Notes under the pieces: model-generated
Told to the model about the DNA's origin: nothing
Seen by the model: only the letters and a program-made list of their open reading frames with translations
Database searches by the model: none
Assembly (NCBI GenBank): GCA_045837725.1
Contig: JBEWZL010000266.1
Coordinates: forward strand, 372,001 to 436,000
Reading direction: 5' to 3'
Origin: Vermamoeba vermiformis
Lineage: Eukaryota
DNA length: 64,000 nt
Position numbers and translations under genes: made by a program
Shown here: positions 16,788 to 61,384 of the stretch, piece by piece
Layout: the number at the start of each line of letters is the position of its first letter
How positions within the stretch are numbered: the first letter of the stretch is position 1

Positions 16788-16824
<37 letters not shown>

Positions 16825-19869: not shown

Positions 19870-21676
19870 TTATTCTTTAGCGTCGATGATACCTTCATCG
19901 GCAATCTGATAAACCTACAGCAAAGGATCCAGGTCAGCCCCAAAATTTGGCAAACGTTCGCCAAAAAAAAACTCTTACCGCTTCGGCTTCTGGTAAGCAC
20001 GGCGAGTCATATATCTTGCATACACGTTGCTCACCTCGTCCTTTTCTATATAGAGCGAATGTACATCAATAAGGGTAGCGCCAAATATGGTAAAATTCAA
20101 GTTGACTCACCTTAAATACAAACGGGTGGTGGAAGCATGCGCTAACACGTTGCCACCAATAGGTTTCTGTGTATATGTTAGCATGTTTGGCTCGAGCAGA
20201 CAGAAGTCACTTCGCTTACTTTTGGATCGGCAACGAACATCGCAGCGCCTCCGGGATCGCTCATGACTTGATTAGTGATGAATACTACATGAGCAGTAAG
20301 TCAAGTATTTACTTTGGATAAACTTAATGAAACAGATCTGCTTACCAGCGACGTTGAACTCCGATGCGATCTTGATCAGTTTGCTCAAGGTCGCTCCGAG
20401 CGCCTGTTGCCGAGCAGATAGCTCACCACGACCGCTAAAGTCGACCTAATTATTGCATGAATTAATTGGCAATTACTCAGAGAGAACGCTTACCCGAAAC
20501 AGCGCAGTTATCGAATCCACTACAAGCAGCGCGAATCGCTCTTCGACCATTTTGGCAGCAATCATTGTGATTAAAGCATCTTGGTGTTCGTACGTGTAGG
20601 CCCTTAGCAATGGGTAAGCAAGTTCAGAGCAGATTGGATCGAAACGTACCGTGCGTAAAAGATGTTGTTTAACGTTTGGTTAGGGTCCAAGCCAAAGCGA
20701 TCTAACACAAATGTAAGTGTTGTCCATTTTATCTTTAATCTCCCTTACTAGCTATCGGCGTAATTCTCTCCGGGCGGCTGAGATTAATTTCTATTATTAG
20801 AAATATCCAAAAAAGGAAAATCAACTCGAACTTACAATGTGCCTTCAGTGTCGATAAATGCAACGCGCCCGTTGCCACCTGTTTAGTACGTAAGTGACGA
20901 GTTGTTGCAACGAAGTAGAAAACTGACCGGATGCGTCTATCGGAAGTTGCGCCGTTACACAAAGAGTGTGGCATAGCTGTGTCTTTCCTATGATATGGAG
21001 CATTATAATCGAGCTCTAAATATGATATATAGGTGGTTGCCTACCGGTTCGGAACTCGCCGAAAGCCTCCGTAATTCCCATGGTCTCGACGCCGCCTCCT
21101 GTTGATGGTAAAGTTATCTATAGTGAGGGTCATTCTGTTAGACGTACCTAATAGCTTATCGAGAATACTACTGCCGGTTGTTAGCTTCAGGACTTGCTTT
21201 CTTTTGTTTAGGGCTTCGTACGCGGTAATGAAGGACGACGCCTGACAATTAGTGAGTACTTATTAGACAATGTAAACACTCTTACATGCAGCTTAGAGCA
21301 AGCCTCGATGAGCTTGTCCACTTTGGCTTCGGATAGGCCTTTGATCTGCGCGAGATCCTGTTGATCCGAGAAATGTCAACTTTCAATGCGAGACGAGTTG
21401 TTATCACTAATGAGCCGTACCTTTTTAGTTCTCATCATGACTCCTGCGACTGTATGAATTCCAGCGACTTTGAGCTTCGCGATGTCGCCTGTAACGAAGG
21501 TTTAGTTATCAATGTTGACAGAGTAGTAGCAGAGCCTTACCTGCATTGATACCGACGCTTTGAAGGCGATCAATGCTGACTATGCCATCGTCTTCTCCAT
21601 CGACGTCTTCCATCTCGTTGTCTTCCTCTTCGACTTCCTTCTCCTTCTCTTTCTCCTTGCGAACGGATCTGCTCAT
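19870..21676 (-). CDS. DMC1: Meiotic recombinase DMC1 (about 15 exons)
   Basis: [110 protein letters not shown] and DPKKP are DMC1-type rather than RAD51-type. Confidence 0.9.
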
Positions 21677-31193: not shown

Positions 31194-31652
31194 GGTGTTG
31201 CTAACGCTCCAGAATAATTATTAACTGAGAGGTTAACCTCACGCGAAGTTTAAAACTTGTCTGGCGCGAAATTCCGGAGTATTCACACTTTAATTGCACC
31301 GCAGGCAACGTTAAAGCTCCGTTTCTCCTCTCTTGATAGATTATTTCCTAATATGGAAGTAGTTGAGAAGGTTTTTGTTCTTCTTCGATCCTTCCAGGAT
31401 GCTTCGATCAGCCAACCAAACACCACAACTTGCCACCAAACACCAACCAACCTATACGACAGGGTGTCAATGTATATTCTACAGTATTCTATTCAATTTT
31501 ACAGCAAAAGTAATAATATTTAAGGGAAAAATCGCCGCCAAGCGCGGAGCCGGGAACCGATAGTGCTCCGTCGCACACGGATCACCTAAGATACTCCGTA
31601 CTACTGTGCATACCTTAAATGGTACCTTTAACTATCAAGTGAAAGTTATTTA

Positions 31653-32785
31653 TTACAACAAAAGTTGGAGCATACCGGAAAACACAACGAAATATCCGAA
31701 TCCAACGGAACTCGCAGAGCTATTGATTTGAACTGAAGGAGAGGACGTAGTTGAAGGATTATTAGAGCTCGAAGAAGGAGTTACTCCATCGAAAGGAGCC
31801 GATCCGTCAGTAGGCGGAGCAGGCATTTCTGCGATTGCGTTAGTCTTCTGATCTTACAATATTCTGGATCTGGCTTACCCCGACCACCAACGATACTGTT
31901 AATGGCAAGTACTGCGACACAGCTTTGCGTAAATTGCAAGTTCCAGCCATTACCCCAGACCACGCGATAGTACCCATCTTCGAGGGTATCTGGGATCGTG
32001 ACAGTGAAGCTCACATCTTGCGTTGTACCAGCTGCCAATGAAGCCCATTGAGCTGTACGTAGGATCTTGGCTTGAGAGCTATTCGTATTCATCCAGCTTT
32101 GCACTTGCATCACCAAGTTGATAGTAGTCAACGCAGTGTTCACGTCAAAACTGAATGTGAAGGTTACATTGTCGCGTTGTTAGGTGTCACGGTCGGAGGG
32201 GCTCCGAAGGTGACTGAGGGCAAGGTAGGCAAAGTAGGCCTTGTGAATGGCAGACCCTCGCCGGGACCAGGCAAACTGACACCTCCTTCTGCCACGTACT
32301 TGTACGCACGAATGTAATCAACGTCCATATAAGCAGGGAACGGCGTTGTGGCATTTGGTGGACCGGGCCAGCCTCCGATAGCCAAATTGGCCAAAATAAA
32401 CATCGGGTACTTCGGCACGCACACAGTGACGTTGAATCGAGGTTATGTTTTTTCAATACCAATGCAACGCGCTCGGATTTCGAAGTAACCAAACGTCTGC
32501 TCGAATCTTCCGTTGGTAGTAATTACACCAGGCTGATAGTCGAATCCATTAACAGATTTTCCCTCGCCAACGATTCGCGAGGTAATCAGATCCAAAAGTA
32601 AATCCACCAGGCGAGTAGAACTGAAGTTCGGTGTTGAGAGTGCCAGGCGCGAATGAATAAGCAGCCAACCATGCAGAATTAACCATAGTTTGACCATTAA
32701 ATTCGTCTGCGAATGTTAGTTGCCATCCAGCACGAGCAAAAAAGACGCATCCTAGAGAAGCAATTAAAAATAGAAAAATACGCAT
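31653..32785 (-). pseudogene. GH16 beta-1,3-glucanase/laminarinase-like gene (signal peptide, Ig-like domain, GPI tail), disrupted
   Basis: WQLTFADEFNG, NTELQFY, FEQTFGYFEIRA and PMFILANLAIGGWPGPP..FPAYMDVDYIRAY are GH16 hallmarks. There is a frameshift near 32578, an in-frame TAA at 32443 and a frameshift near 32170. The WPAFW/EIDxxE catalytic segment is absent. Confidence 0.8.
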
Positions 32786-33188
32786 TGTGGTAACAAAATT
32801 CAAGGAGCTAAATTAATCGTTCGCAAGGCAAGGAAATGTGTTTAAATAAATAAGATTTTGTTATAAAATTGGTATTTGGGCTCGCAGTAACGGACTCACA
32901 CACAGGTTCACTAATATTAATATTACGGTAAAAATCACTACTCGTCACTTCCAAATTAATTTACTAAGATTCGTAGTATTTGAAAAGATTTCGATCTTAC
33001 CTCAAAAAAAAGTCGATTGCCGTATTTCCCCAGGTCATGCCAGCGGATTGCCATAATACGCACTTTGTATTGCTTACACGTACGAAAAATTGCAATTGTG
33101 CTCAGTTGTGGTGTCAAATAAATTACATTTTAGGTAAAGCCTCATTATTTTTCTCATGTTTCGACAACTAACACATTGTCATGTTGCT

Positions 33189-36100
33189 ATGCGTAGCACA
33201 AGCACTTTGTTTCGATGCGCGACAAACTTAAATTGCAGATTTGTGTCGCGGGAGAAGAAAAAGCCGGCAGATTCGGGTTTGGGTGAGTTCCTTCCGCAAC
33301 TCCAGACAAAGCCTTTGCAAATTATTAACAATTTCTTTAAAAGGTAATCGTACTATTACCTTCAAAATTGCAAGGAAGTCAATCCCAAAATCCGATCCAA
33401 ACCACTTAACGCAGCTCACAGCTGATGTACAGCGCACAAAAAAAATCCTTTCGATGTCATCGTCAACGTCAAAACAGCAGAGACTTTTTTCAGAGCGCGT
33501 TTTGATACCCAAACCGCTGAGTGATGATTTGCAAAAACCGAGGTGGAATCCGTTTTACTTTCGCGATTTTGGGATTGCTCAGCAAGAAGAAGGGAGAATA
33601 TTACCTTCTAATGGACTATCCATGCCAAATACAACCACAAAGACGGAAGAAAGCAAGATGCAAAAAGTTTTGAAGGATTTGGACCAAACTCTTCGAACTA
33701 GCGTTGTAATGCCCGAGCAAGAACGATATTTGACTATCCTTATTCAAGGTTAAAGTTTAATTGCTAATTTTGTACCTTAAATTCACACGTTTGCAGCGAG
33801 CGGTTATGGCAAAACACATCTGGCTCACCAATACTGTTTACAACACCGCACCTTATTAATGCAGTTTATGCCTTCGACCAGCTTAGAATTAATCAACATA
33901 TTGGAGGCGTTTATAATCGCACAACGAGACAAGCTCAACATTTCACCATCCGCAGTTGCAGATCGTGAAACAGAACTCGCATTCACCAAGCTAGCATTTC
34001 AGGCTACGTCGCTCATTCCTTTGACTTTCATTGAATTTGCCGAGGAATTTTTTGCTGTTGGTAAATATTTCTAGCCAAGTTTTGTTCACTGAACGAACTA
34101 ACATAGAAACTTTGTCAGCAAAGTTTGTGTCTAAAGCACAGGTGAATGAAGTTTTGCTTCGTGCAATACAGAATGGACAACAGCTAATCAGAGAAAAGTT
34201 TGCAAAGAATTTGAAGATGTATGCAACAAATAGCATGAAATTCATGGGTTTTAAGCAACGAATGTATGCAGCTGCCAAGTCAATGAAACTCGAAGCAATG
34301 ATCTATGATGAAGTGTTGCAATTTGAGAGGTTACCTGGCATGTTCTTGCATCATCCATTTGCAGAATCAGTATGAGCACAAATGAGAGAGCATTACTGAT
34401 CTATTTCACAGACATCATACTTGCACCTGCAAGAAGAAAGAAAGTCTCCTGATACCTCACATCAGTTTTCAGGACCATATCACCAAGTAACTTCATTGCT
34501 GTACTTGCTGCTCATTGCAATGGAAGACCTTGTGAAAGAAGCTGGTATACCAGTAAGTCAGTGAATAGTATGTGAAGCAACATTGATCATTTTCAAAGCA
34601 ACTCCTTCTTTCCACACATTATTCTGCCCAACAGTTTGAACTTCCTCAAGTTGGCACTGGCGCAAGGGATAGATTAAAAGTGCAGAAGTTTTATTGGACT
34701 GAGAGTTCTGCTGAGAGATGGAACAGATTTAACACTGAACTTTTGGCAACTTTTGATTTTTCAAACCAAGAGGAAATCAAAGAAAAGTTGCTCTCAACTT
34801 TAAAACCATTTGCTGTGCGACCAGTTTATTTATGGCCTTTTTGGACTATAGTAAGTATTGACATTGTCTTAATATGTTATTGTGCTAACATGGCTTCAGT
34901 TGTCAGAACACTTGACAAACAAAACAAAAACCTTTGAAGAAATCGTAACTAAAGCTTTGGAAGTTCATAAGTCAAATGTTACACAAACAATTTACCAATA
35001 TGCAGACAAACTGTTGCATTTTGAAAAGCAAGAGGTATGTACGCCTAACTTCTGTATTTGAGTTTGACTAAGGAATTCCTTTAAAGTGGAGAGACAAATT
35101 TCTCCTTCAAATTGCACTGGGTAGACGTTGCATCAAAGGCACTCAAGCTGACTTATCTCACTTGCTGCAAACTGGTCTGATTCCTCTCCCAGAAGGATTT
35201 GAAACATTCATGGAAGGAATCAATGATACTGCAAAGATCCTTATTCCACTTGGTGATCCATTCACTCTTCATTACTTGGAAGGCAAAGCACAGCAACAGT
35301 TTGATCAGGTAAATATTCTCACACACAATAATTACAAAGTATCTGAAACTTTTGCTAGTTGTTGGCAAAAATTGCCCACCCAATGAATTTTGGATATGAT
35401 GCTGGTCTATTTGGTGAAGTCTTTGCATTTGCACTTCTGAGACGTTCCCAAGGCAATGCTTTGAGTGCACTAGCCATGCCAGGCCTAGGACTTGAAAACA
35501 ATGTAGTTTTACAGCAATTCACAATTGGTGATGATTTAAGGCTGCGTGATTTTGTGGACTTAAATCTGACCAGTGATGGTGACTTTCTGAATAGCTTAGC
35601 AACAGGGTATGAGACAAATTCATTGTTTCAAAGTGACTCTAATTGATATTTCTTAGCTCTCAAAACAATGTTCTCAAGCCTTGCAATTCATTTCGTCCTG
35701 ATTTGGTTGTTTTACCTGATGTGAATAGACCTGAAGACTCCAGTCGAGAGCACATGTTCACACTTGGATTGAAACCATCAAACAACATTCAGGCTGTGTT
35801 GTGCATTCAAAGCAAGTTTCATGCTGCTCCAATCACACCTTCAATGGCTCAAACAGCCATAGATTCACTCGATCCAAAAAATGTCTACTCTGGTCGTGCA
35901 GCAAACTTAAGAGAAGCTTGGGAAGAAATGAAACAAACTCTTACCACACCTCATTATTGGATCAGGGTAATGTTATTGCATTTGCAGCTTAAGGTGACTA
36001 ACTTTGATAACTGTAGGTAATTTCTGGACAAGATGTGTCTCAATCTGTGATTGATGCCATTGCTGAGCACAACAAAAATAATCCTTACCAGCCAATTTTG

Positions 36101-36292
36101 ATATTTACTCCTAAGCTGTGGCCAGTGGATGCTGATTGGCTCAAGTTTTCTAGTGTGCAGGCTCCAAATCAATCAACAGCTACAGGACAGCTTGATGCTA
36201 ATTCATTGCAATTGACTCACTTTTTTGATAGTACAATTTTGAACGAAAGTGACTTGAACAAAATACATGGTGCTAGCCAAAGTTCAAAATAA
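33189..36292 (+). CDS. Crinkler-like P-loop NTPase fused to a C-terminal PD-(D/E)xK restriction-endonuclease-like domain (start uncertain: 33189 or 33454)
   Basis: Spliced Walker A LIQASGYGKT; Walker B AMIYDE; FAVRP (possible Arg-finger equivalent); GLFGEVFAFAL; nuclease-like RPDLVV...LCIQSKF. About 10 GT-AG introns. Confidence 0.6.
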
Positions 36293-36330
36293 ACTTTTTT
36301 GGGTTTAATTTATATTCTGCAGTGCATAAA

Positions 36331-39300
36331 TTACATGTTGAGCGTATCATCAAATACAGTGAAGAACTGAGATTGATGTGGGTTGAATAGCGTGATGCGT
36401 TGTGGACTCCAATCGAATTCTTTTGAATGGTAGATCAAGTTCCAAATGTACGGCGAGAAAAATTCAGTTGGATTTTCTTCTTCGTATTTAAATTGCATCT
36501 CAGCGAAGGGCTAATTAAGAATTAGTTTTGTACGTTATTTAAATGAAATTTCATGTTCGTGAAAATTAACTTACGTGAAGTACATCCGATTTCCAAATAA
36601 GGGAAGCGTGTTTAATTGTATCAAGCACTTGTTGTACGGTCCAAGCAGGTGCTTCAACTGTCGCTAATTCAGTCTGCGGCAGTGTTTGTGAAGATTCAAT
36701 GATCGATTGAGTTTTGCCTAATGTCGTCACAAAGTAGCTAATAATCTAGAAATACAATGTTAATAAATAAATTGTAACTAAATATGGTCAAACAATGTTT
36801 TGTACTTACGGCTTGAATGTTCATTAACATGTTTCGGAACTTTTGATTGGCCAAGTATTGATTATAAATCGAATCGAATAGCTGTTGTTGATGCACAATT
36901 TGATAAATTAAATGGCCGTTGTGTTGCAATTTGTGTTTGAGCGTTGAGTTAAATACTTGCAAAGTTAACGCGATGACGTCCTCACTTTGTTGAACCTGGG
37001 ACTACAGATCATAATAAGATATCAGGACTTATGACTATAATTATAATAATAGCCGACACCTACTTCAATATTAAGCAACATTTCGTCCTCTTCTAAAGTT
37101 ACGTCGTCAGATCCGTCTTTCTTTTCTTGAGGGTTCGCACTTTGATTTTCCGCAGCTCGTTTTGTCATTAATTCATTTCTATAATTACTGTACTGCATTA
37201 ATAATCGACCGTGTTTCTTGGTCAATAGCTGCAATGTGCTGATCAGCTTGAACGCCGCGAACGGATGCAGATCTTCAAAGTGCGGAGCCATGTTAGCAAC
37301 GCATGCAATACAATTTGATAGCAAATAATTATCCTATTGAAACAGCGAGATTAGTTATCGCTACTGGTATTATATCGGATCTAGATCTCGTTTTTTCAGG
37401 ACTTACTCTGAGTTGCCTAACACTAATTTGAGCTGTCCGTAATAGTACAAGAGTAATTATTCCGCCTAATGAAATATTCGACAAGAATTTTTCTTTGTAC
37501 CAAGGCACTGTTTTCAACGACTAAAAAAATTAGTTACGCGACCGGATCTTTCGACCAAGCTTTGCTCAGGTAAAAGTATAAACTTACTAAGGTTTGAGCG
37601 GCAGCACAGAAGGACTCGTCATTAGTGAGAATCAATAGTGTAATAAGGATAATATACACGCGTTGTGGTTTTTGTTCGACGACGTTGTACAGCACTTTCA
37701 GCATGGGTAGAATCTGATACAACGAATTAGTCATAACTCCGAGTACTATAGTAGCATAATAGGCCCTACCATAGTCTCAATATCAGTGCGTGAGAGCACG
37801 TAGGATGAAAACAAATTGTTGCCGTGAAGCAAAAAGTACAGCAGTAGCACGGTTCGTTCGTCATCGATTTTGTTCAAAATTGCGGTGTATAACCGCGAGA
37901 TTGATAATTTGAATGTTGTATTGGCTAGTGTTGAATCTGCTTCGAGATCTTTGTTCAATCCAACTATGAGTCGGTCGTTAGTAAAAAAGTTTTTTTTTCG
38001 ACGATCGGCCAACTTTTGCTTCATTCAAAATTGAATGACGGACGATAAAAATATTTCCAAATTAGGCAATGTTACTTACACTCATCGTCAACGAAAGTAT
38101 TCAACGCAAATTTGAACGGGTTGTGAAAGGTGTCAAAAGTCGTGTTTGTGTTGACATTTGCAGGCGTGTAATTGATCAAGATTAAGATCAGATCGAGTGC
38201 TAGATCAGCATAGGGCGTGGCAGCGGTTAATAAGTGCGCCAAGTCCTCGGGAATGGTTCTTTTGACTAACAAACTGTACGCATTCCACGGCAACTTCCAG
38301 AACGCAGCTGTGAAAAAAAATTGTTCAGTAAAACTACTCTAATACTCTTTCAGTATTAATATACTAGTATTTAGTATTGTACTTACATGCTGCGTAGCTC
38401 AACGACGTCAAAATTATTGATGACGCAGTCGCGTGACTGACGCCTTGTTGTTGCAACACAAAATGAAGCAGTAACGTTTCAATCTAATAAAGTAGATCGA
38501 TATTAATATAGTGAATGTAATGCGAAAAAAAATTGATAAAATTAGACTGTATGAGGTCAGAAAAGTAGTCGTGTGAGCACGTACCAAGTCAGCAGTGCGC
38601 AAGAATTGGCCTTGAGGCACATTAAACAAGAGGTTCAAAAACATGTTCTCGTGCTGACCGTTGCTATTTTGAAACATTTGCGTGGACAATAAGGTCAATA
38701 GCAACTTCATGACTTCTTCGTGAAGTGACGCGGTCATGTAGCTGAAATCTTTGTTGATCAGAAAGTTCACTATGGATTCTAATAACTCCCACGGCAAATT
38801 GATCTCTATAATAGGCATATTTAGTATTTTTAGAATGGCTACCATGACGAGTATGTGTTACTCGATGAAAATTTATAAAAATTATGCGGATCCGCTAGTG
38901 CAAATACTATTTCAAATATATCGCCGTAATAGCATTAGCATGATTATATAGGTTTATAATAATATCTAAATTACCTGTTGGCACATCAGCTGCTTCAATT
39001 TCCTGCACGGAGTTTTCAGGCTGAGCAATGTTCGTGTTATTTTCGTTGCTATTTGCAGAATTTTCGTTTGATTGCGTGGGATTATTATTAATATTAACAT
39101 ATTGCCGTAATATAAGGTGATTTTGTTGCTTGAAATTATTCGGCACGTCGAACAATAATTTCATCGGATCTGCACTCGTTGTTTCGATAAAGCTTTGCGT
39201 AAATATGCGTAAATTAAATACGGCTCTAATAGCTAATGTAATTTGCTCTTGATTGGTCACTGAAACATCGCCTAATAAGCCAATCACTTGCAAGATTAAC

Positions 39301-42268: not shown

Positions 42269-44744
42269 CTACTCGATTAAGGCATTAATTGACAAGCCAC
42301 CAATCCTATGCTGATTATTATTGTCGTTATTATTCATATTCAATAGTGCCAATGACTGCGAGTTCAGTTCTCGGTACGTTGCTAGTCGTGGATAAAAATA
42401 GGACCAAGAGATCATATCGTCCACATCACCACGTGAAATTTCGTGGAATAATAATCCTCGCACGATATTTGCCGTGTCGAATTTTGCCGCCTCTCGTTGA
42501 AACTGGATCCAATACAAAATTAATTAATTTTCAAGCCTAATAATTAGAGTGATTACGTACCATCAAAAATTCATCTGTGTATGTTCCAAATAGCATATAA
42601 AATTGTCCTACGATAACTAGCGGCGTGAGGACAAAATATGGATTGTCGTACATCGTCGGATCCAATTCCGACATCAGATCTAATAACATCCTAGCAACCT
42701 ATTTTTCATTCAATAAATTAATCAAATACTAGTATAGAGATAATAGTACTATTATAGTACTTTTGCATACTTTTTTTGCGTCGTCATCTTCCGCGACAAT
42801 AATATGCAGGACGATCCGTGTTGCAAATAATCGCAATAATAAAGTACGTTGAAATTCATTCGGTAATTTCCTAATTAAGCCTTCAGCGTAATTCAATAAC
42901 GTGTGCATTCGACGCAAATTGTTCGGCTGCGCAAAATTCGGATTAATCTCGTGAATGGCTTTGATAGCCCATAACAAGACCTACACCGTCATTAATATCA
43001 TTAATATAAATAATACGTAACACTTTTAATACTTAAATACGAAAAATTAACTATTAGTAAATTTCAAACGAGACTTACGCTATTTTCAATATGTACGCCG
43101 GTCCAAGACATAACATCGAAATCATTTCCAGGCATTGCCACGATTAGTTCTGACAACTCTTCCCTGTTCATTAAACAATTAATCTTCTGTCAATCAACTC
43201 ACAAAAATCAAATTAAATCGTATTGGCAATAATTTTGGAGCTCATAGTTCGGTAACTCCGAGTAAAAAAATTTATGTAACGGAATCTGACGGGAGATGTT
43301 ACGACACTTTGACACTCGGAGTTGCGTTGCGCGATATTCCACTTACGTATTTTCCTCGCAAATTGTCTTTTTTATGTTGCAGCATTTGGCGACGCGGGCG
43401 ACATCGATGACGTCAGATTGAACTTTAGATCGCTTCTTCAGCACGTTAGCTATGGCCAATGCTCGATGATTGTACGTTGCTTCTTTGTTGCTGTCTCCGA
43501 GTGATGCAAAGTGACCGGACAGGATCATGTAGGCTCCGCATAAATACGGATTTACTTCGTCGAAAGATTGCTGAAGAGATGCTCTAAAATAGTACATAAT
43601 GTTATTAATGAATATGATATTGATATGAGATGGCTGGCACGACGGATCTTGCTTGAAAACTTACTCGATGGATCTGACAAAATTGCTGGCATGCAGCTTA
43701 TCGCCCATAAGAAGCGCTCCGACTCCAAAAATAGTGCTCATTAATATACTTTTACTTCCATCTGCAAAATAGCGTCGTTAGCTCAAATTTCGCGATTCGA
43801 TCGCAAAAAGGAAGAAAAAATTAAGGTAGAAATAGCTGCATATAATTTGATTTAACATGATACTCTTAGTTTTGATATTTGGCATCATATTATAGTAATC
43901 TTACTCTTTGAATAGTAATCATTCACGTTTTGAAACGGAGGTGATACTTGAAGGTATGCAAATCCGTTTCTAAGATAGCCGTTGAGGAATGAATTCAGTG
44001 CATTTACATTGCCCATGTGTCCTCCAATAAGCAAGTCATTATGCTAAGTAAAAGTAAAACGTGAGTTGCGAGATCACGTAAAGTTTCAAAAAATCAATCT
44101 TAAAATACCTCCATCTTCGCTAATAAAATTTGGTACTCGCGCTGTAATAGACTAGTCCTTTCCTTGTGCTCGAGTATATTACTCTTCAATTCTTTAATCT
44201 TTTTCCGAAGCACCTGAGCTCGGCCTAAACAATTTACGAGATCAGATCTCGGTTGCTTTTCTATTCCAAATAAAGCTAAAGTATATTGAATGTGCGAAAT
44301 ATTTACCTGGTGCCGGTCCAGTTTGCCCTCGCATATCAGGATAAACGCATTCAATACTATTGGCAAAGCATCGGGAGCAAGGCCTGGATTTATCGCCTGT
44401 TATGCTTAATTAGCAAATTTCAATATTGATTAATTTTATAAAACTGCTTGAAGACTATATGATAAAATGAAAATCGAATAATCATTTGCCCATCGTAAAC
44501 AATCTACATTGTTTATGAGATTCAGAAACTGGGTCAGAATAATCTTCAAAAATGAGAATAAATATTGTCAATGTAATTACATATGATGGTCATAATTATT
44601 TAATATAATAAACCAAATTTTATAATTGCAATAATTCAAAATACGTCGATCGTAAATTGACTTACATTTTACTTTTTTTACTCGACACGGTAAGCATGCG
44701 AGTTTCGCATTAAGGTTATTCACTTCATTAGTGTTAACCTCCAT
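42269..44744 (-). CDS. Zn(II)2Cys6 binuclear-cluster transcription factor (multi-exon)
   Basis: Splicing gives ACLPCRVKKVKCDKSRPCSRCFANSIECVYP (Cx2Cx6Cx5Cx2Cx6C), followed by a coiled coil (LRKKIKELKSNILEHKERTSLLQREY) and a helical C-terminal region. Confidence 0.85.
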
Positions 44745-46243: not shown

Positions 46244-48225
46244 ATGGAAGAACTGCATTTATTCTCATTACCTAAAGAATTATTAGCTATTATATATAAC
46301 CTAGTAGGAGCTGAAAATTTGCTAAAGTAAGTTGGAATTCTGCATCTGCCTTACCAAAATTTAATTTTTTGTGGCGCATTAATTATTCGAAAATTATGAA
46401 TGTATTAAAGACAAATTCACTGATTATTTTGCGTTAAAATTCGAGAGCAATTAAAAATTAAATTATTTAATATCAATAGGACCGAATCTACAAGCAAACT
46501 ATGGCAAAAGCTGTCCTGGGACTCTTTACATGCTATAGACATTGGACCAAAAAAGAAAGCGACATTAAGCGACGAAGACTTATTGCAGGTATTGAACAAA
46601 GTAAATCCGCAAAAAATTCGCAAGATCAACTTGACTGGCGAGAAGAAAATTACAACGAGTTTAATGCACCTCGATAAATTCAACAATATACAAGCATTTT
46701 CGTGCCGATCTTTGAAAGGCTCAGTGATACGGTCGGTAGCTTTGCTATTGACATCCGTAAAAAAGCTGGATCTGAGCTCGCGAAAACTAAATGATGAATG
46801 CATCACTCTATTTGCCCAGAATATGCCACATCTAACCAAGTTGTTATTAAGCAATTCTTCAGAGCTCCAAGGTAATCTACAAAACATTGCATTATTTTCC
46901 TCGTACATTTTTTCGTTCTTTAAATTCTTTTTCCACCAAGATCGACCTAATTATATAACTATAGTATCATATATATATAATTTTGATTATCACGTTCGGT
47001 TGTGTTTTGGTTGACCTAACAGAATTTTCTTCTTCAGATTTGCCGGATCTGACACGCTTGACGAAACTAGAAACGCTCAATTTAGCGTTCAGTGAAAAAA
47101 TCACCAACCAAGGAATGGCTCAAGTATGCCTAATGACGCATTTACGACGACTTGACATTTGTTGGCTGAAAAATATCGACGGTCCTGGCTTCGAAAAAAT
47201 CTCAAAATTGACAAATTTGATTCATTTGGACATTTCAAACATTGCAGGAGTGTTAGATACGTATTTGACAGCATTACTGGCCTTGACGAATTTGGAATTG
47301 TTGGATCTCAGCTATTACAAACTTTTGTCCGATTTTGGCTTGTCTATAATAGGCCAATTAACGAATATGACTAGATTAATATTCGTCGATAATAGAAAAG
47401 TTACAGGCGATGGATTGAATTATTTGACAAATTTGACCAAATTGAACATGCTGTCACTTAGTTCAATGCCAAATGTCATCAACGATCATTATTTCAGTGA
47501 ATTATACAACTTGACACTTTTGCGTGTCAAAATGGAAGAAAAGAATTTCAGCGTGTTGACCAACTTGACCAAAATGCAAGAACTGTCTATTGCAGCCCTC
47601 TCTGATATCAACGAAGAATTTTTCAGCTATGTCTCTGTAATGACTGGCTTGCAGTCTTTATCCCTTCGTGCGACACGATGCAGCGTCGTTGTTGACACTT
47701 TGACATGTTGCACCAACTTGACGTGTCTAGAGCTCGATGATTGCATGAGTTTCACTGCCCCTGGAAACCCTTTGGATATTGGTACGTACCTTAATCATAT
47801 ACAATAGTAACTTATTTTATGCCTTTATGTTAAAACTTTTGTTCATAACTGATGTTAGTAACCCTTTTGCTACGCGAATGAAACTAATAATCTATTTGAA
47901 TGCAGATATTATCGATCGACTGTTGAAATTGACGACATTACAACAATTGCAATTGCGATTCGGCAAAGATTTCAACCGCCTAGCAGAGCTTACAAATTTG
48001 GAAATACTCGTCCTGGAAGTACCAGCATCGTCTACAGTACGAAAAGATGACTTTACGCAGCTGTTAACTTTGCCGAAATTGGCCTCGCTGCACTTGACTG
48101 CACCAATTCCAAGCGCAGAATTGAAAGAAGTGTTTGACCAGCACCGTCAATTGACCAATTTAATGGTCGAAACCAATCAGAGTGAGGCTGAAGATATTAA
48201 CATTTCAAGCGAAGACTTGTTTTAA
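46244..48225 (+). CDS. F-box / leucine-rich repeat protein
   Basis: N-terminal LFSLPKELLAIIYNLV..SKLW (F-box), then many LxxLTNLxxLDLS repeats. Confidence 0.85.
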
Positions 48226-57349: not shown

Positions 57350-60300
57350 TCAAAAATTTTTGGCTTGCTCGATCTCCTGGACCAAGCGCCCCATTGAAGG
57401 TCGCATTTCAGGATTAACTTGCCAACACTCTTGCATCATAGAGGCTATTTTTTGAGGACATGAAGGAGGGATCGTTGGAACGAGGCCTTGATCTCTGATC
57501 TGTCGTGCAATGTCGATGGGATCTGCGGAATTGTGCGGCTCTTCCTGTGCCATAATCTCGTACATAAGAATACCAAATGACCACACGTCTATTTAAAATA
57601 AGATTAGAGCCCAAGCAAAATGACGATTTTGAGAGCAGATCCAGCGTCCAGTAACATACCTGATTTGTTCGAGTATTGTTTGTATTTTAGCGATTCGGGT
57701 GACATCCATCGGATTGGTCCAAGCTCTGATCGTGTTGTGCCTTTCTGATCTTCTTCGACAAACCGAGACATGCCAAAGTCAGTGAGCTTTGGTTCGTTCT
57801 GGTGCAACAAGACGTTTCGTGCAGCAACATCGCGGTGCACAATGTTGTTCGAATGCAAGTGATTGAGGCCCTGCGCAACTCCTGCAATCCACGACCACTT
57901 TTGTTGCGTTGTCAGCGGCTTCTGAGAGTCGTAAAGAGCGGCGTCTAGAGAACCACCATCACAGTATTCGATGATCAATATGACGCTGTTAGTCTCGGGG
58001 TGGATGCTAAAGCCGAACAATTGAATGACATTCGGATGAGGTCTCATGTTGATCATCACTTCGAGCTCGGAGATGACGCTGGAGTTCGCTTGAGTGGAGC
58101 TCACTTTCAACGCTACTTTCGTCTTCTTCCACGTGCCTTCAAACACTTGGCCGTTCGCGCCTTGGCCGAGTTGTATGCCAAACTGAATGTCAGAGAATGG
58201 CGTGAACCATTGTCCGTACCGCGATTCGAGCTCACTTGTTGTTGTCGTTTGTCTCTTCTTTTTCTTGTTTCTTCGTATCAGAAGTACCGCTAGGAGGACT
58301 CCTGCGATCACCACAGCTCCAACAGGGACGACCACTGCGATGATAATTGTGCTCGAGTTGTCCGCAACACTGTCAACAGTCGGCTCTTGCACCGTCAAAG
58401 GAGTTGAGGGCGGCGCAACAGGAGGAGCGACAGGGATTGTCAAATTAAGCACCAAAAACTGCACGGTGTCGGTGTAGTAATATCGCTCCCGATGAACTCC
58501 TCCAGCGATCATCAGCACTGTAGAAGAATTCTTGTCAGCGGGCAGTGTCTGAAGCACGGCGGGCAAGAAGCTGTTATCGAATGGCTCTGTTCCCCAACCC
58601 AAGTTGCTCGGATAAAAGTAGTTGATCTCGGATGTGCCGTTGCCAAAAGCCAGCAAAAAGTCGTCGTACATGACCAAAGAAAGAGCAGACTGTGCCACGG
58701 GGAACGATGAAGATTCAAAATGATCATCCTCGATGGTGTAGAATATAATTTGCTCGTAAATTCCAACTGTTGCCCTCGTAGCTAAAAAGAGCATCTTTGA
58801 CTGATATGGAACGATAAATCGTGTGATTGCAGTAGAACTGTCCGAAATTGGTGTGTCGTCAAATAGTGACTGCGTGACGCTGAGTGGCCATGACACAACG
58901 TTCATTCCAGGTCCTGCATATATGCAGTAGGCTTTGTCGTTGATCATCGGGATAGGAGCAAATGTCGGATTGTCTTGAAGGAGGTACGAAAATGCTGTAT
59001 CTTTTATAGTGCTCCAGCCCGTTTGATTGCCTTTGTGTATGACCGCTTGAGTTGGACTGAAAATCACCAAAGAGTCGTTAAATGCCACAGCCTGGTGATA
59101 TCCTTTGGCTGTTGGTGTTCCGCCAATTTTTATGCTCGGCTCCCATGTCTCTTCCACGTAGTTGTACACGTCAATGTACACGGAGTAATTCAAGAATGGC
59201 GGGGCAATGCCAGGGCCGAAAGCGGGTATCGCGAAAAATTTTGAGCCTTCTTGAACCCACAAAGAGGTCGGGGGCATCGGACTAAACGGCATTGTTGTTT
59301 CAGCGAAGGAGCTAACATCGATCTTGTTTCGGCTGAATATGTCGATGAGCTGTCCATTCACTAGAGCCATCGGAAGAAACGACGGGGAATGGGAATTAAC
59401 TACGTATGTGTCTGAATCCATTAAATCCATGTAATACGGACTGGCACCAGATATCAAACAAACGGTGTTATTGTTGATCGCGAAAAGGTACCGCGGCTGA
59501 GTGCTCGATACTGAAAACTGCGCGAACTGTCTGTTGCTTGCATCGTACTTGAATACAGATCCTCTTGGTGTAACGAATGCCATTACTGTTGCTGAGAGTT
59601 CGACGCTGTGTAGTATTGTTTCGGCTTGAAGTCCTTCTAGCAAGGCCTGTATCTCGACACTGGGCGTGGCGTTAGAATTGATAACAATGGTCCATGAGCC
59701 AGAGTTCTGATCGCGAGTAGAGTACAAGAACTGATCGGCAATAGCGAAGGCCAATGTCAACTCTGTAACGGGAGTCCAATTGTTCGACATTGTCGTCCAG
59801 TGTAGCGTCCAATAGCCGTCCGGCAAAAACACAATAGTGCTGTCGAAGTACGACACTGACGACACGAAGCCACTTGCATCACGATTGAGCCATTGCTTAT
59901 TCGGGATAGAATACACCACTACCATGTCGCTGTATTGAAACACCACCGCTTGATTGTTTGCATCGAGTGTTGACGAGAGGATTGCTTTCTCCGGTGCTTG
60001 GTTCGTGAACTCGACAGGGTCGCTTAAGGGCGCGTCAATCAACCACACACTGTTGCTCCAAACGTTGGTCTTCATGTCGTAGCCGCCGAATACAAACACG
60101 CAGTTTTGATGTGCAAAAGTTGTGGTACCATAAAGTGTCATCATTTTAGCGGTCAGTTTTGGATTGGTGGTCCAACTGCCAGTCTGCGTGTTGAAAAAAT
60201 CCACGGAGTAGGGTCCGACAACGGTCAATGTTGATCCATACAAAGCAAGTTTCGTTGGTGACCTAACTGTCGGTCCAGATGCGAAACTGGTGGTAAAGCT

Positions 60301-60663
60301 GTAGTCTGATTCTAACCGCCAAGGAGGATTGAGGTATTCATAACCACCTATGAAGTATATTCTAGGCTCAACTGCAACTGGTGTGATCATGCCGCGGGCT
60401 GATCCAAGAATAAGTTGGGTAATTGTATTGTTTGTCAAATCCAAAACGTCAACAATATTCGATGCAATGTAATCATGATAGCCAAAGCCTCCAGCAAAGT
60501 AGATTTTGTTGTCCACTTGAACGGATCCAAAGGACGTTCGAGGTGAAGAGAGTTGGATTGTGTGGTTCACAAAAACCGAACCAGATGCAAGACCCAATAA
60601 GGCAAAAATGAGCAAGTAAATAAGACTGCGATTTCCAGTGCGTACGAAGGTATTAAGCATCAT
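57350..60663 (-). CDS. Receptor tyrosine kinase-like protein with Kelch/beta-propeller ectodomain (2 exons)
   Basis: Signal peptide; Kelch motifs (KIYFAGG, RIYFIGG, VFVFGGY, LMIAGG); Pro-rich stalk; TM IIIAVVVPVGAVVIAGVLLAVLLI then RRNKKK; kinase GQGANG, VALK, HRDVAARN, DFGMSR, GPIRWMSPE, DVWSFG. Confidence 0.9.
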
Positions 60664-61384
60664 TGTTTGGCTCCTAAATAATAATGTGGGTTAATTTCTG
60701 AATCAAATCTGTTTTGAAATCGGGTAGCTGACCGTTGTAAGTTTATAACCAATCAAAATTAGCCGCATAGTATACTTACGATTAAAGAGGTCTTCTCAGA
60801 CTGAAAATTGGCCAAACTTATAATTTGGAAGCGTTGTCGTGGTTAATCCAAACGAGGTGCACGACGATCTGAAGTTCCAGTTCTCACCAAATATTTTTAC
60901 AGCATACTCGTGTGATGTTGTATGAAGGACAACATAAATTTGTAAAAGTCTGTGTAACTTACGTCTGATTGATTGACGGTCGTACACAGTTGGTTACATT
61001 CAATTGGGTAACACCAATGCTATCTCCAGCACTTAATTAATTGCCGCTTCCTGATAAGGGTCAATTATGGAAGGTCTTTCTTGCGAAGGGGTGAATATAA
61101 TACATCGATCCAGATGTGCATCTAATTTCCTATCTACTAAAATTAGCAAAATTAGTATTCGTAATTTCATATTAAAAATTCCACACATTAACTTACCATT
61201 ATCTCATCCTTCGTACGGTCCAGACATGTTGTAACTCTGGCAACACATTAGAGTACCGTTACTACCTTGCTAACTGCTTTACGAGCTATGTTCATTGTTA
61301 TTTTTAAGCTTTATAATTGAATGTTAGAAGATTAAACGAAGTCGTGTGCTTCTGTTGCTGGTTTCATTTAGAATTTAACTCACC

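Follow-up and report, generated by a model that had tools for sequence, protein, structure and literature searches.

Introduction

Isolated methylated genes, orphan genes among them, have already been described in the otherwise unmethylated genomes of small eukaryotes (protists and fungi), and a locus of Vermamoeba vermiformis appears to be an unusually clean example. The locus lies on contig JBEWZL010000266.1 of assembly GCA_045837725.1, within positions 372,001 to 436,000 of the forward strand; this whole stretch of 64,000 nucleotides is called the window here, and coordinates count from its first letter. It consists of a sharply bounded stretch that has lost most of its CpG dinucleotides, called the desert, spanning exons 3-10 of an intact ten-exon gene, and is probably the footprint of long-lasting local CpG methylation.

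Genes marked with 5-methylcytosine (5mC) number 381 (2.4%) in Acanthamoeba castellanii and 112 (0.6%) in Naegleria gruberi (PMC12344493). As is proposed for this locus, a few isolated genes are marked there in an otherwise unmethylated, gene-dense genome, and the Acanthamoeba mark is CpG-specific, as is the loss described here (PMC12344493). The 5mC of these two species is sparse and repressive and sits on silent genes and young transposable elements (TEs), whereas here a mutational footprint only is seen and the protein was under selection; many of their methylated genes also have viral or TE relatives, and none was found for this gene in the searches described below (PMC12344493). In the fungus Rhizophagus irregularis most highly methylated genes are orphans, 80.2% are without a known domain, and repetitiveness is not required (PMC8647823). 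The gene studied here shares these traits, being an orphan of which the window contains one copy.

Gene-body methylation provides a second point of comparison. Gene-body 5mC rises where the marks of the 5' end stop, in an arrangement of N6-methyladenine (6mA) at the 5' end and 5mC downstream, and gene-body-methylated genes with a low ratio of observed to expected CpG (o/e) are reported from invertebrates, chlorophytes and Amoebidium (PMC12695648). The locus is similar in that its 5' end is spared and depletion runs from a few nucleosome lengths inside the gene to the end of the transcript (PMC12695648).

Results

Depletion of CpG at the locus is confirmed as real, unique within the window and sharply bounded on both sides. 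The window as a whole has a G+C content of 39.5% and a CpG o/e of 1.19. Across 34001-36500, 1-kb windows have CpG o/e values of 0.16-0.36 with TG and CA o/e of about 1.5, and all remaining 1-kb windows of the 64 kb have a CpG o/e of at least 0.94; in 500-bp windows, values below 0.6 occur within 33951-36500 and nowhere else. The depleted stretch contains the window's three longest runs without CG (370, 349 and 317 bp), the next longest being 171 bp. A likelihood scan of CG density returned 34051-36390 as the best segment (log-likelihood gain 63), with 17 CG in 2340 bp against approximately 104 expected from the background relative abundance. A maximum-likelihood change-point on CG/(CG+TG+CA) placed the desert at 34102-36384, where 16 of the 432 CG, TG and CA sites are CG, compared to 277 of 1027 in the flanks (the support for each edge is given in Table 1). 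Relative to 186 background segments of equal length, CG abundance (rho) in the desert is 0.20 (background mean 1.23, minimum 0.97; z -7.3) and that of CA/TG is 1.53 (background mean 1.04; z +6.3). The loss is symmetric between the strands, with 214 TG and 209 CA where about 143 of each are expected.

The 5' part of the gene is spared. Exons 1 and 2 have CpG o/e values of 1.11 and 1.08, respectively, and exons 3-10 of 0-0.34; the upstream DNA through 34060, including the promoter, has normal CpG content, and at the other end depletion stops about 50-100 bp or less from the stop codon. A previous reading, made from the letters alone and called the sequence-only reading below, had counted 12 CG in 34321-36300, 6 in 20341-20400 and 6 in 36341-36460, and a recount returned exactly these numbers. 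The sliding-window analysis likewise bears out what it had said of the locus: a CpG o/e below background with TG and CA raised, introns depleted like exons, a 5' part that escaped and an end near the stop, among neighbouring genes, such as those for Dymeclin, an ABC transporter and a kinase, that are not CpG-depleted.

5-Methylcytosine deaminates to thymine, so that CpG becomes TpG or CpA. Decay of this kind was simulated on 19 host open reading frames (ORFs), with non-synonymous sites partly protected. The decayed ORFs had a G+C content of 0.39 and TG, CA, AG and CT values of 1.64, 1.58, 0.95 and 1.08, respectively; the corresponding values observed for the coding sequence of the desert are 0.397 and 1.62, 1.52, 1.02 and 1.13. 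With its symmetric loss, its gain of TG and CA and its match to the simulation, the pattern is as deamination of methylated CpG would produce it, in agreement with the sequence-only reading.

Within the desert exons there are no NCG codons where host usage predicts about 32, five CpGs across codon boundaries where about 46 are expected, and nine CGN arginine codons compared to an expected 18 or so. Nine of the 14 CpGs that survive in exons occupy codon positions 1-2; the corresponding fraction in host ORFs is 19% (p 2.3e-4, binomial). This concentration of survivors in arginine codons indicates that the protein was under selection during CpG decay. The sequence-only reading had reached the same view from six CGN arginine codons among its 12 survivors; the enrichment holds, and the count is corrected to seven of 12, the CpG at 35126 having been missed.

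Sites outside CpG context were left as they are in the host. Two-fold codons ending in C or T and followed by G have a C:T ratio of 1:41 in the desert vs 139:115 in the host, and those not followed by G have 42:50 vs 343:336 (p 0.44, Fisher). At four-fold sites outside CpG context, the desert agrees both with host genes and with the 5' exons of its own gene. Its seven introns contain one CG in 339 nt where 10-16 are expected (Poisson 1.6e-6), with a CG o/e of 0.11 and a normal TA o/e of 0.88. The desert is host-like sequence that has lost CpG only, wherever the protein permitted.

The same sites bear on whether the segment could have been imported already depleted, by gene conversion or introgression from a methylated paralogue or orthologue or from a CpG-poor donor, with its edges as recombination break-points. 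Such an import would be in keeping with two sharp edges, one inside the gene at intron 2 and the other at the gene end. However, codon usage outside CpG context and four-fold sites are like those of host genes and of the gene's own 5' part, the seven introns resemble host introns in length and in the style of their branch sites, no paralogue that could be a donor copy is present in the window, and scans of viral contigs with exons 9 and 2 found no relative. The flat contig depth and the water-metagenome relative described below, which has the same neighbours and one contig over the 3' edge, also count against it, and the donor itself would have needed methylation. CpG-specific, symmetric loss combined with host-like non-CpG codon usage favours decay in place over a foreign CpG-poor donor. 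Import in general is judged unlikely, and recent transfer from a CpG-poor donor, which the sequence-only reading had kept as its alternative, is disfavoured by the host-like codons, the host-type introns and the syntenic relative.

Selection against CpG itself in the DNA or pre-mRNA, for instance to avoid a CpG-reading factor, would account for the near-complete depletion at free sites and could take in the low TA of the exons (0.40 in exons 3-10). Introns are nevertheless depleted as strongly as exons, and exons 1-2 of the same transcript are undepleted. Low TA is confined to exons, including the undepleted 5' ones (0.54 in exons 1-2, compared to 0.73 in host ORFs), and is absent from the introns, and the gain of TG and CA matches mutational decay. 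This explanation is considered very unlikely. Low TA (rho 0.51 for the desert as a whole) was also tried as a signature of foreign origin and rejected, since it is exon-only, extends to the 5' exons that kept their CpG and arises in part from the decay itself. The low exonic TpA of the gene is a property of its coding sequence, independent of CpG loss.

Repeat-induced point mutation (RIP) in fungi changes C to T on both strands within sharp limits; it depends on duplication and as a rule disrupts the reading frame. A RIP-like, repeat-induced hypermutation of a once-duplicated 2.3-kb segment would yield the sharp edges and the C-to-T type changes on both strands that are seen here. Here, however, the window contains no second copy, there is no extra depth (weak evidence), and the gene remains intact, no stop having been created in 611 codons. 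All NCG contexts were hit rather than one trinucleotide, the base before surviving CpGs being T in 7, A in 5, G in 4 and C in 0 cases (986, 832, 659 and 438, respectively, in the host). The absence of stops and the enrichment of survivors at non-synonymous sites indicate slow decay under selection rather than a burst, and a RIP-like event is regarded as highly improbable.

The reading frame of the gene is uninterrupted from the ATG at 33454 to the TAA at 36292, and all nine splice sites are intact. Its nine GT-AG introns are 42-58 nt long with CTAAC/CTRAT-like branch motifs and are of the host type. Family and Protein Data Bank (PDB) searches were run per exon. There was no significant family match in Pfam, NCBIfam, PADLOC or PHROGs, with PHROG 296 weakly matching the P-loop region (E 0.022), and five PDB sequence searches with exons returned nothing below E 0.5. 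A phmmer search against 1.84 billion proteins, with exon 9 as the query, returned two unnamed exon-sized fragments and one spurious repeat protein. The relatives of exon 9, P0017 and P0018, have identities of 49% and 55% (in either order) and share its AV[LI]CIQSKF and SLDPxN.YS blocks; one also has PHYWIRV at the same exon end, and the end of exon 9 coincides with the end of homology in P0017. P0018 was found on 7 contigs, the longest of 504 kb. A word-indexed search of longer proteins with exon 9 gave no match, and scans of metagenome contigs with exon 9, and then with the three-sequence alignment, found no relative.

Structure prediction for exon 9 with AlphaFold (three sequences) is unreliable, with a predicted local distance difference test (pLDDT) score of 41; its strand-strand-strand-helix order is as in the PD-(D/E)xK core. 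Look-alikes of exons 9 and 2 in the ESM Atlas are eukaryotic clusters in which fungal labels are commonest, with scores below the reliability mark, and serve as leads only. Two RNA runs gave no reads on the gene, a result uninformative on expression as the runs hold 14 reads each, 27 of the 28 only 90-95% alike, and are thin even on the neighbours. Among the second-haplotype insertions and deletions listed, three fall in the gene span (34570, 35323 and 36294), all of them intronic or just past the stop; a further 22 stand outside the listing. One DNA-run contig skips 33287-33551, which would delete the predicted start codon, but its joint is anchored by just 30 nt on the shorter side.

The gene had been called Crinkler-like, TE-derived or toxin-like in the sequence-only reading. 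Crinklers (CRN/CR) combine a header domain with C-terminal P-loop NTPase, helix-turn-helix and restriction endonuclease toxin domains (PMC5289972, summarising Zhang et al. 2016). The gene resembles them in a Walker A-like loop near the N-terminus and a QxK-type block in a C-terminal part rich in beta-strands. It differs in that exon-by-exon searches found no header, no LxLFLAK motif and no PF20147 match (exon 1 matched no Pfam entry at E <=1), and the phmmer and word-indexed searches with exon 9 found no sequence relative among known CRNs or other named proteins. As the header is absent and the C-terminal assignment is motif-only, the gene is not filed as a Crinkler. Genes with a Crinkler domain form only 0.4% of the methylated set in Rhizophagus irregularis (PMC8647823), so that a Crinkler link would not explain methylation anyway. 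The labels TE-derived and toxin-like fared no better: no family-level match was obtained per exon, the gene has no terminal inverted or direct repeats, and the 64-kb window contains no paralogue of it.

The DNA run covers all 30 depth bins, and summed contig depth, which is not a copy number, is flat, with a mean of 577 in the desert and 521 and 566 in the flanks. The 3' edge of the desert is crossed by a DNA-run contig (36100-36376) and by a contig (36243-36396) from an unrelated water-metagenome run; contigs of that run are 90-99% alike to the gene and its flanks, and the neighbours of the gene are unchanged there. An assembly chimera or contaminant, a possibility that the sequence-only reading had allowed for, would explain the abrupt change of composition and nothing else; with continuous depth, two contigs from independent runs over the 3' edge, and one open reading frame with a canonical intron spanning the 5' edge, it is extremely improbable. 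The gene is neither a private insertion nor a chimera.

A second form of the locus is also present in the DNA run, at roughly a third of the depth, with 22 differences in 278 nt at 36100-36376. Over 31500-38500, 27 of 28 reads from RNA runs that bear this species label are just 90-95% alike to the window, so the label seems to cover clearly diverged lineages.

The gene and its 3' neighbour are convergent. An AATAAA signal overlaps the stop of the CpG-poor gene, so that its transcript probably ends a few tens of bases beyond. The neighbour matches Pfam PF09742 (Dymeclin) in three exons, and its intron at 36511-36574 is confirmed by RNA joints. The coding ends of the two genes are 38 nt apart (36292-36333), and with poly(A)-type signals at 36288 (+) and 36304 (-) their 3' untranslated regions probably overlap. 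Other genes of the window encode ABC-transporter, ankyrin, leucine-rich repeat (LRR), PH-domain and Kelch plus kinase proteins, and no tRNA or Rfam matches were found in the window.

The window is compact and repeat-poor, its only tandem array being a T32 run at 16788-16819. Several 1-kb windows outside the desert have a CpG o/e above 1.5, for example 1.76 at 42501-43500. On the reverse strand, 57604-60690 holds an intronless frame of 1028 codons with Kelch repeats and a tyrosine-kinase-like kinase (G+C 47%), in a window whose other genes are intron-rich. Metagenome contigs of 441-456 kb carry several relatives of it each, at 49-56% identity, and an ENA assembly contains one at 93%. Long frames of 177 and 196 codons overlap on both strands at 46420-47011, beside a leucine-rich-repeat gene at 46965-47807.

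Table 1. Coordinates of features at the CpG-poor gene and its immediate neighbours (window numbering).
Feature	Position	Strand	Basis or remark
CpG desert	34102..36384	none	change-point fit; 2-lnL support 34010-34174 (5' edge) and 36320-36398 (3' edge)
Intact gene, 10 exons, 797 codons	33454..36292	+	model from sequence alone, ATG to TAA
Exons 1-5	33454-33748, 33797-34060, 34119-34369, 34412-34552, 34599-34850	+	gene model
Exons 6-10	34900-35034, 35087-35308, 35359-35606, 35657-35966, 36017-36292	+	gene model
Exons 1-2 and intron 1, normal CpG	33454..34060	+	exon o/e; CG share 0.23-0.27 in 150-bp bins
Intron 2 with CTAAC branch-site-like motif; 5' desert edge (best estimate 34102)	34061..34118	+	intron sequence, change-point fit
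Walker A-like P-loop ASGYGKT, split by intron 1	33748..33816	+	motif in translation only
Possible Walker B AMIYDE, inside the desert	34295..34312	+	motif by eye, without family support
Conserved AV[LI]CIQSKF block, possible (D/E/Q)xK nuclease-type motif	35793..35819	+	invariant in exon 9, P0017 and P0018
AATAAA signal overlapping the stop of the CpG-poor gene	36288..36293	+	sequence
Last coding exon of convergent Dymeclin gene, stop 36333-36331, 8 CG (normal density)	36331..36510	-	frame, RNA joint 36510/36575, Pfam on upstream exons
Divergent upstream neighbour, weak SKN1/KRE6-type glucan-synthesis match, normal CpG	31781..32803	-	PF03935 E 0.0013, below family cut-off

Discussion

The composition of the locus makes it probable that 34102-36384 has long been CpG-methylated on both strands, and is likely methylated still, while the rest of this CpG-rich, compact segment is not. 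We infer 5mC as the cause of the CpG loss. Deamination of methylated CpG would have produced TpG or CpA at every site that could bear the change (all NCG third positions, about 90% of codon-boundary CpGs and the introns), while arginine CGN codons would have been kept in part by selection on the protein. The methylated domain would track one transcription unit, starting about 650 bp after the ATG at intron 2, stopping at the 3' end of the transcript, and ending less than 100 bp from the convergent housekeeping gene. With about 95% of synonymous CpGs gone and an o/e near 0.2, the state was presumably long-lasting relative to the haplotype and strain divergence of 5-8%. A maintenance-type methyltransferase (DNMT1- or DNMT5-like) would presumably be responsible; no cytosine methyltransferase is encoded among the 40 window ORFs scanned, which were chosen by length.

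Two kinds of methylation both fit the locus and are not separable here. The first would be a repressive mark on a lineage-restricted gene whose 5' end is shielded by an active promoter shared with the divergent neighbour, and the second a transcription-linked gene-body methylation restricted to few genes. The spared promoter and first 650 bp or so, taken with selection on the protein, suggest that methylation of a live gene fits at least as well as the silencing of a parasite. The sequence-only reading, whose methylation footprint is supported here, had gone on to propose a targeted silencing or genome-defence pathway, which would be a further, hypothetical step.

Several observations weigh against long-lived local methylation in one or the other of these forms. 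Only one gene of the window is depleted, which is unusual for gene-body methylation: elsewhere such methylation hits a large share of genes, and here a single stretch falls below a CpG o/e of 0.6 in 64 kb (PMC12695648). The promoter and first 650 bp are spared here, whereas the repressive pattern described for Acanthamoeba covers promoter and body (PMC12344493). Both edges are sharp (about 80-160 bp) and the 5' edge falls at an intron, and a replaced segment would look alike. A cross-species survey of protists reports that genome-wide CpG depletion and 5mC level are not correlated (PMC12695648), so the step from composition to methylation is not automatic.

A more far-reaching version of local methylation may also be considered. 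In it, the gene would be lineage-restricted, functional and NTPase/nuclease-like, under methylation that is set by its transcript (RNA-guided or elongation-coupled), sub-nucleosome-sharp, limited to a single transcript and very long-lived, in a protist/fungal lineage without known targeting of this kind. In that case it would be a conflict or defence gene under epigenetic gating, kept off by default and switched on by infection or a change of life stage, which would set it apart from a silenced parasite and from an ordinary body-methylated housekeeping gene alike. This version is thought quite unlikely.

The locus reveals no new kind of system. For annotation it provides a rule: sequence by itself, scanned for change-points in CpG/TpG, can flag candidate methylated genes in lineages that have not been sampled. 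If methylation is confirmed, the gene would be an unusually clean natural record in which about 85% of CpGs were lost under protein-level selection. An edge at most 100 bp from a convergent unmethylated gene would then serve as a gauge of how precisely 5mC is confined in a small eukaryote. The record would also let the duration over which the methylated state has been inherited be measured, and it would test whether orphan genes under methylation still function or are dead cargo.

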